Virus record (IMG/VR): IMGVR_UViG_2563366850_000002
Strand: one strand, 5' to 3'
DNA length: 3,198 bases
Source: a virus
Taxonomy: Duplodnaviria; Heunggongvirae; Uroviricota; Caudoviricetes
Of this stretch, positions 1 through 3,198 are shown one piece after another. A program made the position numbers and the translations under genes. The notes under the pieces were generated by a model. It saw only the letters and a list, made by a program, of their open reading frames with translations, was not told where the DNA came from and searched no databases. Position 1 is the first letter of the stretch, and every line of letters starts with the position of its first letter.

Positions 1-351
1 ACCGTCGCCCCCGCCCGTCTGCGTGAGGCCATCAAGTCAGGCATGGCGGAGACGAATGCGGAGCTGTACGAGTACCGCGAACAGAAAATTGCCGCCGGTT
101 TTACGCGTCTGGCGGACGTCCCGGCGGACGACATCGACGGTGAAAGCATCAAGGTTTTTTACTACGAGCGCGCCGTGTGTGCGATGGCGACCGCGTCGCT
201 TTATGAGCGTTACCGCGGCGTGGATGCCAGTGCGAAAGGCGACAAGAAGGCCGACAGCATTGACAGCACCATTGATGAACTGTGGCGGGATATGCGCTGG
301 GCGGTGGCGCGTATCCAGGACAAGCCGCGCTGCATCGTGAGTCAAATCTGA
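1..351 (+). CDS. L: Head completion/stabilisation protein gpL (P2-like), C-terminal ~116 codons plus stop; 5' end lies outside the window start and the N-terminal part is at 3015..3198
   Basis: Frame 1 is open from position 1 and reads TVAPARLREAIKSGMAETNAELYEYREQKIAAGFTRLADVPADDIDGESIKVFYYERAVCAMATASLYERYRGVDASAKGDKKADSIDSTIDELWRDMRWAVARIQDKPRCIVSQI, ending at TGA 349..351. This matches my recollection of the P2 gpL C-terminus. The stop overlaps the next start by 1 nt (TGATG), as expected for adjacent phage late genes. Confidence 0.85.
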   Translation, partial: TVAPARLREAIKSGMAETNAELYEYREQKIAAGFTRLADVPADDIDGESIKVFYYERAVCAMATASLYERYRGVDASAKGDKKADSIDSTIDELWRDMRWAVARIQDKPRCIVSQI

Positions 352-554
352 TGAAGACCTTTGCGCTACAGGGCGACACGCTCGACGCCATTTGTGTCCG
401 GTATTACGGGCGCACTGAGGGCGTGGTCGAGACTGTGCTCGCCGCAAATCCGGGACTGGCTGAACTGGGTGCGGTGCTGCCGCACGGCACCGCCGTCGAA
501 CTGCCCGACGTTCAGACCGCGCCCGTGGCTGAAACTGTCAATCTGTGGGAGTAA
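351..554 (+). CDS. X: Tail protein X (P2 gpX-like, small LysM-like protein), 67 aa, apparently intact
   Basis: ATG at 351..353 and TAA at 552..554. The translation MKTFALQGDTLDAICVRYYGRTEGVVETVLAANPGLAELGAVLPHGTAVELPDVQTAPVAETVNLWE matches recalled P2 gpX in length and sequence. Native L-X-Y order is preserved. Confidence 0.85.
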   Translation: MKTFALQGDTLDAICVRYYGRTEGVVETVLAANPGLAELGAVLPHGTAVELPDVQTAPVAETVNLWE

Positions 555-557
555 CGC

Positions 558-842
558 ATGACAGCAGAAGAAAAAAGCGTCCTGTCGCTTTTCGTGATTG
601 GGGTGCTGATTGTTGTCGGCAAGGTGCTTGCCGGTGGTGAACCCATCACCCCGCGTCTGTTTATCGGGCGCATGTTGCTCGGTGGTTTTGTCTCGATGGT
701 TGCCGGTGTTGTTCTGGTGCAGTTTCCTGACCTGTCACTGCCTGCGGTGTGCGGCATCGGCTCCATGCTGGGTATCGCCGGTTATCAGGTGATTGAGATT
801 GCCATTCAGCGCCGCTTTAAGGGCAGGGGGAAGCGGAATTAA
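558..842 (+). CDS. Y: Holin (P2 gpY-like), 94 codons; the last 2-3 codons may derive from the junction with the V fragment
   Basis: ATG at 558 is preceded by GGGAG about 7 nt upstream. The translation MTAEEKSVLSLFVIGVLIVVGKVLAGGEPITPRLFIGRMLLGGFVSMVAGVVLVQFPDLSLPAVCGIGSMLGIAGYQVIEIAIQRRFKGRGKRN has hydrophobic transmembrane segments and a basic C-terminus, and matches recalled P2 holin gpY. TAA at 840..842. Confidence 0.85.
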   Translation: MTAEEKSVLSLFVIGVLIVVGKVLAGGEPITPRLFIGRMLLGGFVSMVAGVVLVQFPDLSLPAVCGIGSMLGIAGYQVIEIAIQRRFKGRGKRN

Positions 843-1104
843 AACGGCCAGCGTGACGGCTTCTGATTCTGTTACTGCCACGGTGCCGGTGGTCATGGTG
901 AAAGCATCAACCCGCGTCACCCTGGACACACCGGAGGTGGTCTGCACCAACAGGCTGATTACCGGCACGCTGGAAGTGCAGAAGGGCGGGACGATGCGCG
1001 GCAACATTGAACACACCGGCGGTGAACTCTCATCAAACGGGAAGGTACTGCATACCCATAAACACCCCGGCGACAGCGGCGGCACAACCGGGGGACCTCT
1101 ATGA
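832..1104 (+). pseudogene. V: 3' fragment (~90 codons) of baseplate spike gene V (P2 gpV-like); the 5' ~120 codons are missing and there is no native start
   Basis: Frame 1 reads SGIKTASVTASDSVTATVPVVMVKASTRVTLDTPEVVCTNRLITGTLEVQKGGTMRGNIEHTGGELSSNGKVLHTHKHPGDSGGTTGGPL, ending at TGA 1102..1104. This matches the recalled C-terminal third of P2 gpV. The six-frame ORF 793..1104 starts at an ATG inside the holin gene in another frame and is not a native start. The ATGA stop/start overlap with W is preserved. Confidence 0.8.
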
Positions 1105-1448
1105 CAGCGCGTTATCTCGGAATGAATCGCAGTGATGGCCTGACTGTCACTGACCTTGAGCATATCAGCCAGAGTATCGGCGATATCCTGCGCACGCCGG
1201 TCGGCTCACGGGTGATGCGTCGTGATTACGGCTCGTTGCTGGCGTCAATGATTGACCAGCCGCAGACCCCGGCGCTTGAGTTGCAGATTAAGGTCGCCTG
1301 TTACATGGCGGTGCTGAAATGGGAACCCCGCGTCACCCTGTCATCTGTCACCACGGCGCGCAGTTTTGACGGGCGAATGACGGTCACGTTAACCGGCCAG
1401 CACAACGACACCGGCCAGCCACTTTCGTTAACCATCCCTGTGAGTTGA
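1101..1448 (+). CDS. W: Baseplate wedge protein gpW (gp25/GPW family), 115 aa, intact
   Basis: ATG at 1101 overlaps the V stop (ATGA). The translation MTARYLGMNRSDGLTVTDLEHISQSIGDILRTPVGSRVMRRDYGSLLASMIDQPQTPALELQIKVACYMAVLKWEPRVTLSSVTTARSFDGRMTVTLTGQHNDTGQPLSLTIPVS matches recalled P2 gpW with the expected length. TGA at 1446..1448. Confidence 0.9.
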   Translation: MTARYLGMNRSDGLTVTDLEHISQSIGDILRTPVGSRVMRRDYGSLLASMIDQPQTPALELQIKVACYMAVLKWEPRVTLSSVTTARSFDGRMTVTLTGQHNDTGQPLSLTIPVS

Positions 1449-1452
1449 AACT

Positions 1453-1626
1453 ATGCCGATTATCGACCTGAACCAGCTACCCGCACCGGATGTGGTCGAG
1501 GAGCTGGACTTTGAAACCATTCTTGCCGAACGCAAGGCGACACTGATTTCCCTTTATCTGGGAGCTTTACGCCGCAACCGGTGTGGATGCCGTACCGATT
1601 CGTTTTGCAGGCTCTTACCAGCGTGA
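1453..1626 (+). pseudogene. J: 5' fragment of baseplate gene J (P2 gpJ-like): about 35 native codons (1453..~1557), then out-of-frame read-through into FII-derived sequence, stopping at TGA 1624..1626 (57-codon ORF)
   Basis: ATG at 1453 lies 4 nt after the W stop. The N-terminus MPIIDLNQLPAPDVVEELDFETILAERKATLISLY matches recalled P2 gpJ, then the sequence diverges (LGALRRNRCGCRTDSFCRLLPA*). Native gpJ is about 300 aa. Confidence 0.8.
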
Positions 1627-1861
1627 CGATACCGGCGAAACGGTGGCCGTCGAGGTGGTCATGCGTGGACGTCAGAAAGAAATCGACACCGGCGAGGGTA
1701 AACAGGGAGAAGACACCGAGTCGAAAATCTCCGTGGTCTGCACTTATTTCCGGCTGACGATGGACGGTAAGGAGCTGGTCGAAATTGACACCATCAACAT
1801 GATTGAGAAGGTGAACGGCGTCGACCGGCTGGAGCAACACCGCCGCAATATCGGCCTGTGA
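1553..1861 (+). pseudogene. FII: 3' fragment (~100 codons) of tail tube gene FII (P2 gpFII-like), copy 1; no native start codon
   Basis: Frame 2 reads (F)IWELYAATGVDAVPIRFAGSYQRDDTGETVAVEVVMRGRQKEIDTGEGKQGEDTESKISVVCTYFRLTMDGKELVEIDTINMIEKVNGVDRLEQHRRNIGL, ending at TGA 1859..1861. This matches the recalled C-terminal ~60% of P2 gpFII. There is an in-frame stop at 1544..1546. The tracked ORF 1583..1861 begins at an internal GTG with no Shine-Dalgarno. Confidence 0.8.
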
Positions 1862-1868
1862 TTTTCAT

Positions 1869-1889
1869 CCGGTCAGCCTGGCTGACCGG
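1869..1889 (+). other. Perfect inverted repeat/stem-loop in the FII-E intergenic region (CCGGTCAGC ctg GCTGACCGG), copy 1
   Basis: A 9-bp perfect stem with a 3-nt loop, 8 nt after the FII stop. No run of T follows it, so it is not a canonical intrinsic terminator. It may be an RNA stability or attenuation element within the operon. Confidence 0.5.
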
Positions 1890-1917
1890 TTAACCCTGAT
1901 TCATAAGTGAGAAAACC

Positions 1918-2106
1918 ATGAACAAAGAAAATGTCATTACCCTGGACAATCCGGTCAAACGTGGTGAGCAGGTTATCGAACAGGTCACGCTGATGAAACC
2001 CAGTGCCGGGACGCTGCGCGGTGTCAGTCTGGCAGCGGTCGCGAACTCCGAAGTCGATGCACTGATTAACGTGCTGCCGCGCATGACGAACGCAAGGCGA
2101 CACTGA
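1918..2106 (+). pseudogene. E: Truncated copy of tail assembly chaperone gene E: 57 native codons fused at the duplication junction to 5 non-native codons (NARRH) and a stop
   Basis: ATG at 1918. MNKENVITLDNPVKRGEQVIEQVTLMKPSAGTLRGVSLAAVANSEVDALINVLPRMT is identical to the start of the full E copy at 2478 except N versus K at one residue. It diverges after 2088 into J-derived sequence read out of frame. The frameshift site and E' extension are absent from this copy. Confidence 0.8.
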
Positions 2107-2112
2107 TTTCCC

Positions 2113-2421
2113 TTTATCTGGGAGCTTTACGCCGCAACCGGTGTGGATGCCGTACCGATTCGTTTTGCAGGCTCTTACCAGCGTGACGATACCGGCGAAA
2201 CGGTGGCCGTCGAGGTGGTCATGCGTGGACGTCAGAAAGAAATCGACACCGGCGAGGGTAAACAGGGAGAAGACACCGAGTCGAAAATCTCCGTGGTCTG
2301 CACTTATTTCCGGCTGACGATGGACGGTAAGGAGCTGGTCGAAATCGACACCATCAACATGATTGAGAAGGTGAACGGCGTCGACCGGCTGGAGCAACAC
2401 CGCCGCAATATCGGCCTGTGA
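2113..2421 (+). pseudogene. FII: 3' fragment of tail tube gene FII, copy 2 (duplicate of 1553..1861)
   Basis: Identical to copy 1 at a 560-nt offset except one synonymous difference (1786 T versus 2346 C, ATT/ATC Ile). TGA at 2419..2421. Confidence 0.8.
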
Positions 2422-2428
2422 TTTTCAT

Positions 2429-2449
2429 CCGGTCAGCCTGGCTGACCGG
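2429..2449 (+). other. Same inverted repeat/stem-loop, copy 2 (inside the duplicated unit)
   Basis: Identical sequence at a 560-nt offset. Confidence 0.5.
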
Positions 2450-2477
2450 TTAACCCTGATTCATAAGTGAGAAAACC

Positions 2478-2753
2478 ATGAACAAAGAAAATGTCATTAC
2501 CCTGGACAATCCGGTCAAACGTGGTGAGCAGGTTATCGAACAGGTCACGCTGATGAAACCCAGTGCCGGGACGCTGCGCGGTGTCAGTCTGGCAGCGGTC
2601 GCGAACTCCGAAGTCGATGCACTGATTAAGGTGCTGCCGCGCATGACGGCACCGATGCTGACCGAGCAGGAAGTCGCCGCGCTGGAACTGCCTGACCTTG
2701 TGGCGCTGGCCGGTAAGGTGGTCGGTTTTTTGTCGCCGAACTCGGTGCAGTAA
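2478..2753 (+). CDS. E: Tail assembly chaperone gpE (P2-like), 91 aa, intact; analogue of lambda G
   Basis: ATG at 2478, TAA at 2751..2753. The translation MNKENVITLDNPVKRGEQVIEQVTLMKPSAGTLRGVSLAAVANSEVDALIKVLPRMTAPMLTEQEVAALELPDLVALAGKVVGFLSPNSVQ matches recalled P2 gpE. The native position after FII is preserved. Confidence 0.9.
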   Translation: MNKENVITLDNPVKRGEQVIEQVTLMKPSAGTLRGVSLAAVANSEVDALIKVLPRMTAPMLTEQEVAALELPDLVALAGKVVGFLSPNSVQ

Positions 2754-2905
2754 CGTTCCCGAAAAATCTGTCGGTCGATGACCTGATGGCGGATGTGGCA
2801 GTGATATTTCACTGGCCGCCATCAGAACTGTATCCCATGAGCCTGACCGAACTCATCACATGGCGCGAAAAGGCGCTCCGGCGAAGCGGAAACACGAATG
2901 AGTAA
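2478..2905 (+). CDS. E': gpE+E' (P2-like), made by programmed -1 ribosomal frameshift at 2726..2732; extension ends at TAA 2903..2905 (about 142 aa total)
   Basis: The slippery heptamer T_TTT_TTG sits in the E frame near the E 3' end. The -1 frame downstream is open and reads VAELGAVTFPKNLSVDDLMADVAVIFHWPPSELYPMSLTELITWREKALRRSGNTNE*, matching the recalled P2 E' C-terminus. Confidence 0.8.
2726..2732 (+). promoter_or_regulatory. Programmed -1 frameshift slippery sequence (TTTTTTG) for E to E+E' recoding
   Basis: The heptamer T TTT TTG is in the X_XXY_YYZ register relative to the E frame (codons TTT 2727..2729, TTG 2730..2732), with an extended open -1 frame downstream. Recoding at this kind of site in P2-like E/E' and lambda G/GT is established knowledge. 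Confidence 0.75.
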
Positions 2906-3014
2906 CAATGTAAAATTACCGAATGCGCCCCGCGCCAGGGCGGCACGCCGGTCAGTGAGGGTGAATCACCTGACACTGCACCGGCGTCCACCGCCCGACT
3001 TTTCAGAGGTGGTC

Positions 3015-3198
3015 ATGATGACGCTGATTATTCCGCGAAAGGAGGCTCCCGTGTCCGGTGAGGGTACGGTGGTCATCCCGCAACCGGCAGGCGACGAGCC
3101 GGTGATTAAAAACACGTTCTTTTTTCCCGATATCGACCCGAAGCGCGTCCGGGAACGTATGCGCCTTGAGCAGACCGTCGCCCCCGCCCGTCTGCGTG
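3015..3198 (+). CDS. L: Head completion/stabilisation protein gpL, N-terminal 61 codons; continues beyond the window end and is in frame with 1..351
   Basis: ATGATG at 3015 is preceded by GAGGTGG 4 nt upstream. The translation MMTLIIPRKEAPVSGEGTVVIPQPAGDEPVIKNTFFFPDIDPKRVRERMRLEQTVAPARLR matches the recalled P2 gpL N-terminus. The last 25 nt are identical to window positions 1..25 and the frames agree. Confidence 0.85.
   Translation, partial: MMTLIIPRKEAPVSGEGTVVIPQPAGDEPVIKNTFFFPDIDPKRVRERMRLEQTVAPARLR
3174..3198 (+). repeat. Terminal 25-nt identity with window positions 1..25 (ACCGTCGCCCCCGCCCGTCTGCGTG), consistent with circular or tandem-unit topology with a 3173-bp unit
   Basis: Direct comparison of the window ends. 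Joining them reconstitutes a 510-nt (169 aa plus stop) gpL ORF, the expected size for P2 gpL. Confidence 0.9.

Follow-up and report, generated by a model that had tools for sequence, protein, structure and literature searches.

The DNA examined here, a stretch of 3,198 nt hereafter called the window, holds a short open reading frame that begins as the P2 baseplate protein gpJ and then leaves it abruptly, and the question it raises is whether this is a native gene arrangement, a fault of the draft assembly or the trace of a deletion. Our reading is that the junction between J and the tail tube gene FII (J'-'FII) is very probably an in vivo deletion scar of about 7.5 kb, left by decay of a chromosomal P2-like (Peduovirus) prophage and not a new element.

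The window was mapped by BLASTN to three references, phage R18C, phage P2 (NC_001895) and the intact prophage of E. coli USMARC-51408. It resolved into a same-strand mosaic of P2-like (Peduovirus) late-region DNA made of six collinear pieces, which were 97-100% identical to the three references and followed the P2-like late-gene order (Table 1). The pieces meet at four distinct junctions, which we call J1 (Y' to 'V), J2 (J' to 'FII, present twice), J3 (E' to a J fragment) and J4 (T' to the M/L spacer). The first-pass annotation of this DNA had described the J'-'FII fusion; it overlooked that the scar is duplicated in a 560-nt tandem repeat, that there are four junctions overall and that the contig closes on itself.

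Table 1. Segments, genes, gene fragments and junctions of the window, with the corresponding P2 coordinates of the six collinear segments.
Feature	Window position	Strand	P2 position	Content or remark
Segment	1-832		6159-6990	'L, X, Y minus two codons
Segment	828-1564		10667-11403	'V, W, J'
Segment	1554-2088		19066-19600	'FII, E'
Segment	2088-2124		11367-11403	J fragment, second time
Segment	2114-2919		19066-19871	'FII, E, E', T codons 1-7
Segment	2918-3198		5903-6183	M/L spacer and L start
L 3' part, X	1-554	+		L to 351, X 351-554
Y'	558-842	+		holin gene minus last 2 codons, joined to 3 foreign codons
Junction J1 (Y' to 'V)	831-832	+		AA; ~P2 6991-10666 removed, ~3.6 kb
'V	828-1104	+		3' part of baseplate spike gene V, from ~codon 121; out of frame with Y'
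W	1101-1448	+		baseplate wedge gene, intact, 115 aa, PF04965
J'	1453-1556	+		first 34 2/3 codons of baseplate gene J (gpJ residues 1-35)
Junction J2 (J' to 'FII)	1554-1556	+		TTA microhomology, both parents; imperfect 8/11 similarity over 1554-1564; ~P2 11396-19065 removed
'FII	1557-1861	+		3' part of tail tube gene FII: residues 73-172 and part of codon 72; PF04985 match
E' (first E copy)	1918-2088	+		tail assembly chaperone gene, cut after codon 57; ORF ends 2106
Junction J3 (E' to J fragment)	2087-2088	+		CG, from base comparison
Scar copy 2 (J2b)	2114-2116	+		J' to 'FII repeated
'FII copy 2	2117-2421	+		from ORF, Pfam and BLASTN mapping
E complete and E' extension frame	2478-2905	+		E 2478-2753; extension frame 2786-2905
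T'	2898-2919	+		tape-measure gene, first 7 codons
Junction J4 (T' to M/L intergenic)	2918-2919	+		AC
M-L intergenic and L start	2920-3198	+		L start at 3015; begins 3 nt past M stop

The J'-'FII junction was confirmed and lies inside the interval 1545-1565 in which the first-pass annotation had placed it. Window positions 1453-1556 encode gpJ residues 1-35, gpFII residues 73-172 follow in another frame from 1557, and the breakpoints were identical on all three references. In a base-by-base comparison with these references the J sequence matched exactly through 1556 and the FII sequence exactly from 1554, placing the switch within the shared TTA at 1554-1556; the pairwise comparison with P2 J and FII that had been suggested earlier thus fixed the breakpoint at these bases. 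The gpJ N-terminus is intact to about codon 35, as had been claimed, with 34 of 35 residues identical to P2 gpJ. The fusion ORF (1453-1626) encodes 57 aa, in which codon 35 is the last gpJ codon and 22 out-of-frame codons lead to the stop at 1626, the same count as had been given before. P2 gpFII residues 73-172 were identical to the translation of 1559-1861 at 100/100 positions, and the switch is out of frame as described earlier (J in frame 0, FII in frame 1, that is +1 relative to J). Chance is not an issue for either match because the alignment E-values are near zero.

Neither fragment resembles a complete gene. Intact gpJ homologues are 302 aa long with three Pfam domains (N, middle and C), and residues 1-35 are what the window encodes; the PF04985 match in 'FII is a match to a fragment of a tube protein that measures 172 aa in full. 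The 'FII fragment had been described as lacking both a ribosome-binding site and a start codon. The first half of this description held, as direct reading of the sequence upstream of the GTG at 1583 revealed no evident Shine-Dalgarno-like sequence, but the second half did not, since that GTG is in frame and gene callers take a 92-aa ORF from it. The earlier conclusion that neither gene is likely to be functional nevertheless stands. The 'FII product would be non-functional because it would lack the first 72 residues of the tube protein and because no Shine-Dalgarno sequence is evident at GTG 1583, and we infer that J' and 'FII are both pseudogenes with non-functional products.

How much DNA is missing at J2 depends on the reference: 7,673 bp when counted on P2, 7,459 bp on R18C and 6,796 bp on the intact prophage that is closest. 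All three figures agree with the several kb that had been predicted to be lost, from the rest of J through I, H, G and FI into the 5' part of FII. By the P2 annotation, the loss covers J from codon 36, I, H, G, the V-operon terminator, a fun(Z)-type cargo region, the pF activator site, FI and FII codons 1-71. At J1 the P2 annotation and the mapping indicated loss of K, lysA, lysB, lysC, R, S and orf30 together with the O-operon terminator, the pV promoter site and the 5' part of V; the holin is nearly complete, and the endolysin and spanins are gone. The late-gene set is incomplete on both counts, with K, lysA-C, R, S, 5' V and most of J absent and likewise I, H, G, FI and 5' FII between the junctions. 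J1 and J2 between them take away two late promoters, pV and pF, as well as two operon terminators, and pO is now the only promoter upstream of what remains of this region (X, Y', 'V, W, J', 'FII, E, T, U and D). Judged by this gene content, the KTE156 element is a defective remnant rather than a functional phage. With endolysin and spanins, R, S, most of the baseplate, fibres, sheath, pV and pF lost, it would be expected to form no tails, lyse no cells and give no plaques.

On scaffold KB733421.1 of assembly GCA_000351965.1 (E. coli KTE156), the window coincides exactly with a contig that has a gap of 6,695 N before it and one of 4,290 N after it (positions 1854-8548 and 11747-16036 of the KTE156 locus, L002); it carries locus tags A31A_01578-01583. 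When ~15 billion proteins were searched, the 57-aa J' fusion ORF and the 94-aa Y'V fusion ORF were each found in exactly two assemblies, and the carriers of both were the same two, GCA_000351965.1 and GCA_000408785.1. Both are short-read draft assemblies (KB/KE scaffold records), which we take to come from the same sequencing centre and pipeline. In GCA_000408785.1 the locus (L003) is 11,473 nt long, contains no N and reads 'L-X-Y'V-W-J'FII-E-T-U-D-ogr followed by pflB-focA-ycaO. The gap-free run of ogr into host pflB-focA-ycaO is a finding from this sister locus. This gap-free 11.5 kb locus continuing into host genes indicates that J1 and J2 are genuine, inherited scars of a chromosomal prophage.

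The two KTE strains differ by 10 SNPs in T-D (2058-6195 of L003 against 16037-20174 of L002), from which it follows that they are two separate isolates that share J1 and J2 by descent. The 10 differing sites in T-D form a mosaic of reference-like alleles, and the window part differs at only 2-3 sites; judged from the alleles, another P2-like prophage may have contributed to this mosaic, either through recombination or through admixture in the assembly. An intact counterpart occupies the same pflA/pflB site in strain USDA-ARS-USMARC-51408, with its ogr end adjoining pflB. This prophage was 97.8-99.9% identical over the shared segments and 99.6-99.9% identical outside 'V-W-J'.

The remaining two junctions belong to KTE156. 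Positions 1527-2648 (+ strand) consist of two head-to-tail copies of a 560-nt unit, ~1527-2088 and 2087-2648, which comprises J codons ~26-35, the J2 scar, 'FII, the intergenic region and E codons 1-57. Because the unit contains the scar, the duplication postdates the deletion. Two positions distinguish the copies. At 1786/2346 they read T and C, where the sister strain has T and every reference C; at 2070/2630 they read C and G, where G is found in all others, the sister strain included, and this private C is 18 nt away from J3. In the sister strain the 560-nt unit is single copy and J3 and J4 are absent, so that the head-to-tail copies and the novel J3 and J4 are seen only in the gap-flanked draft contig of KTE156. 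Window positions 1-25 are identical to 3174-3198, and this 25-nt sequence is part of a continuous stretch of gene L (continuing at 26-351), so the contig closes as a 3173-nt cycle through J4. Past the downstream gap, the next KTE156 contig begins with window sequence 2771-2919 and then runs into T, which means that the assembly graph branches exactly at J4. On the other side, the preceding contig ends in M codon 120, 382 nt short of the right breakpoint of J4. Across J4, T' reads in frame through 32 spacer codons into complete L, giving a 208-aa ORF that is probably a coincidence.

Given that large N gaps flank it and that two of its junctions are lacking in the sister strain, the KTE156 contig is not a trustworthy picture of the chromosome. 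We lean towards J3 and J4 being a real nested tandem duplication or amplification in KTE156. Reads across these junctions must have existed because a 2-nt overlap cannot misjoin an assembly graph, and J3 and J2b lie only 26 nt apart. Alternatively, J3 and J4 are a fault of the library or of the assembly, to which a second P2-like prophage in KTE156 may have added; such a prophage is hinted at by position 2346, which carries the ancestral (intact-phage) C allele. KTE156 may thus hold either a second P2-like prophage or a multi-copy array. A look-up with the W protein for a second P2-like locus in KTE156 returned only unrelated intact prophages, and W is too common for a locus search (45,974 index blocks). 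Circularisation in a mate-pair (jumping) library was rejected as the main explanation of J3 and J4. Blunt ligation would not be expected to select for microhomology, and reads of that kind are singletons, while the 26 nt between J3 and J2b mean that the two were read together repeatedly. An autonomous circle (plasmid or mini-phage) was also rejected, as the 3173-nt cycle has no ori, gene A or cos. The cycle maps only to P2 5903-6990, 10667-11403 and 19066-19871, with the P2 ori (29892), gene A and cos elsewhere, and it was found in no plasmid record (72,556 records).

The gap sizes of the scaffold were considered as well. The gaps and the contig together give an M-to-T span of 14.2 kb in KTE156, against 13.2-13.9 kb in intact prophages and ~2.9 kb for the deleted form. 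A multi-copy array, if present, would account for the ~14 kb span. We discarded the gap sizes as evidence for either an array or a contig misplaced within an intact prophage, since neither an n-copy array of the 3173-nt cycle nor misplacement predicts the individual gaps; the sum of the gaps alone resembles the intact M-to-T distance, and another gap at the same locus is off by ~600 nt. The gap sizes in KTE156 are non-decisive.

Breakpoints, losses, inheritance in two assemblies, chromosomal context and an intact counterpart are direct observations, and the deletion reading adds a course of events to them. In the prophage that sits between pflA and pflB of a rare E. coli lineage, to which KTE156 and one sister KTE strain belong, RecA-independent illegitimate recombination or replication slippage would have acted at sites sharing only TTA within an imperfect 8/11 match; the outcome would be an out-of-frame fusion of J codon 35 with FII codon 72. 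A second deletion of like style, Y' to 'V and ~3.6 kb long, would have disarmed the prophage together with J2. Exact microhomology of 2-3 nt was present at 4/4 junctions (AA, TTA, CG and AC). For random same-strand junctions in an intact prophage the probability of at least 2 nt is 0.16, and for all four junctions having at least 2 nt it is 6.7e-4. We infer that the 2-3 nt of microhomology are the signature of RecA-independent illegitimate recombination or replication slippage.

Other origins were weighed against this one. Were the junction a library chimera or misassembly in the KTE156 draft, with the real prophage intact, several features of the draft would fall into place: the window is a 3198-nt contig set between large N gaps, the implied span is near that of an intact prophage and far from that of the deleted form, the contig closes on itself within a prophage region that is fragmented throughout the draft, and the C at 2346 hints at reads from a second prophage. 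We regard this as very unlikely because J1 and J2 also stand in a gap-free contig of another strain that continues into host genes. In addition, a 3-nt overlap cannot create a de Bruijn misjoin, and the same random chimera arising in two separate libraries is implausible. That the source is a phage, satellite or tailocin-like element in which an FII-like gene natively follows a short J-like ORF, the arrangement named earlier as a possible refutation, has next to no probability. Nothing speaks for it beyond the gene-caller ORFs of 57 and 92 aa, and against it the flanks are 97-99% identical to full-length J and FII with an abrupt mid-codon switch. All ten intact loci that share the same W protein have the full 302-aa J and the canonical V-W-J-I-H-G...FII order, and the 57-aa fusion ORF forms a singleton cluster.

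The junction itself was also looked for in sequence collections. Megablast searches with the whole window and a 161-nt junction probe found J2 in 0 of 50,697 phage records, 72,556 plasmid records and 5,426 complete E. coli genomes, so that none of these closed genomes carries the J'-'FII scar. Exact-pattern scans for J2 gave 0 matches in GTDB species representatives, IMG/VR and JGI metagenomes. Corresponding scans gave 0 matches for J4 in metagenomes and IMG/VR, for J3 in IMG/VR and for J1 in GTDB representatives, and a literature search on KTE156 gave no match. The absence of J2 from the phage, plasmid, E. coli, GTDB, IMG/VR and JGI collections argues against a native arrangement, and rarity is expected of one particular deletion allele.

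A further account keeps the scars real and changes how they formed, with J1 and J2, and later J3 and J4 in KTE156, produced by multi-step template switching at replication restart (MMBIR/FoSTeS-like). It would fit the presence of four junctions on the same strand inside 3.2 kb, each with 2-3 nt of microhomology, and likewise the constant co-occurrence of J1 and J2 and the private substitution 2070 C at 18 nt from J3. The co-occurrence is equally explained by common ancestry after two separate deletions, however, no intermediates have been sampled, J3 and J4 are known from one draft contig, and a single nearby SNP is no evidence of error-prone synthesis. We consider this account improbable. There is a similarly slim chance that MMBIR-like serial switching shaped the whole locus, with both deletions made in one event and the nested 560-nt duplication in a later one that also amplified the L-X-holin-W-E block (3.17 kb) in tandem, this block being retained as a multi-copy array. 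Decay of a chromosomal prophage by deletion remains our preferred reading for J2.

The scar is a known kind of thing, ordinary prophage erosion. That fixed prophages degenerate by deletion is well documented (PMC6379469; for the pool of defective prophages in O157, PMC2669165), and the KTE156 remnant resembles other defective (cryptic, 'grounded') E. coli prophages in that essential morphogenesis and lysis genes are deleted and frame-shifted, truncated fragments are left. It differs from eroded E. coli prophages in being young, with surviving segments 97-100% identical to active P2-like phages, and in having breakpoints that can be read to the base. Relative to P2 (NC_001895) and its cluster V-W-J-I-H-G / FI-FII-E-E'-T-U-D, the gene order is alike and the DNA identity is 97-99%. 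Unlike P2, the remnant is without ~6991-10666 and ~11396-19065, and in KTE156 only it has the 560-nt duplication and the T' to M/L back-junction.

Two closed genomes carry comparable remnants. That of NCTC9041 (L010) lies at the pflA/pflB site, has I' to 'FI and cox to S' deletions and adjoins pflA at its int end; that of ETEC1701 (L009) lies at the yegQ site and reads V' to an H fragment to 'FI. Both are like the KTE156 remnant in that the fibre/sheath block is deleted and FII-E-T-U-D-ogr kept, and NCTC9041 shares its site. Unlike KTE156, they have other breakpoints and hence represent independent events, and neither has a tandem-duplicated scar. In one of the ten intact W loci (L011, 15870-18172), the stretch from G to FII holds IS21-family transposase genes, and gene calling gave no sheath gene there.

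Short-junction tandem duplication or amplification and MMBIR-type rearrangements reportedly occur in enterobacteria, as in the work of Reams and Roth and the lac work of Slack, Hastings and Rosenberg. The KTE156 contig is like such RecA-independent short-junction amplification systems in its nested same-strand head-to-tail junctions with 2-3 nt of microhomology; unlike them, it shows no evident selection and is known here from the contig alone. Four short-microhomology junctions and a duplicated scar in a gap-flanked, self-closing contig are the only mildly unusual aspect of the locus. Its importance is slight beyond annotation, where the 57-aa and 92-aa 'hypothetical proteins' of KTE156 (A31A_01581 and neighbours) should be marked as gpJ/gpFII pseudogene fragments. 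It also provides a clean, base-resolved case of a P2-like prophage disarmed by short-microhomology deletions of lysis, fibre and sheath genes, and the self-closing contig with its duplicated scar is a caution against taking gap-flanked draft contigs as chromosome structure. If J3 and J4 are real they would be a small natural example of nested microhomology-mediated duplication, and if the MMBIR-like reading is true the locus would be a natural, base-resolved case of complex replicative rearrangement in a bacterial chromosome.

Two elements of the surviving FII-E region were also seen. The slippery run of the E/E' -1 frameshift, TTTTTTG (T6G), lies at 2726-2732, with the P2 site 19685 mapping to 2733; it is kept only at the 3' side of the complete second E, as the first E copy ends before the run. 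A 21-nt palindrome, CCGGTCAGCC-T-GGCTGACCGG, is present in the FII-E intergenic region of both duplication copies, at 1869-1889 and 2429-2449. This palindrome is conserved P2 sequence and possibly forms an mRNA hairpin.
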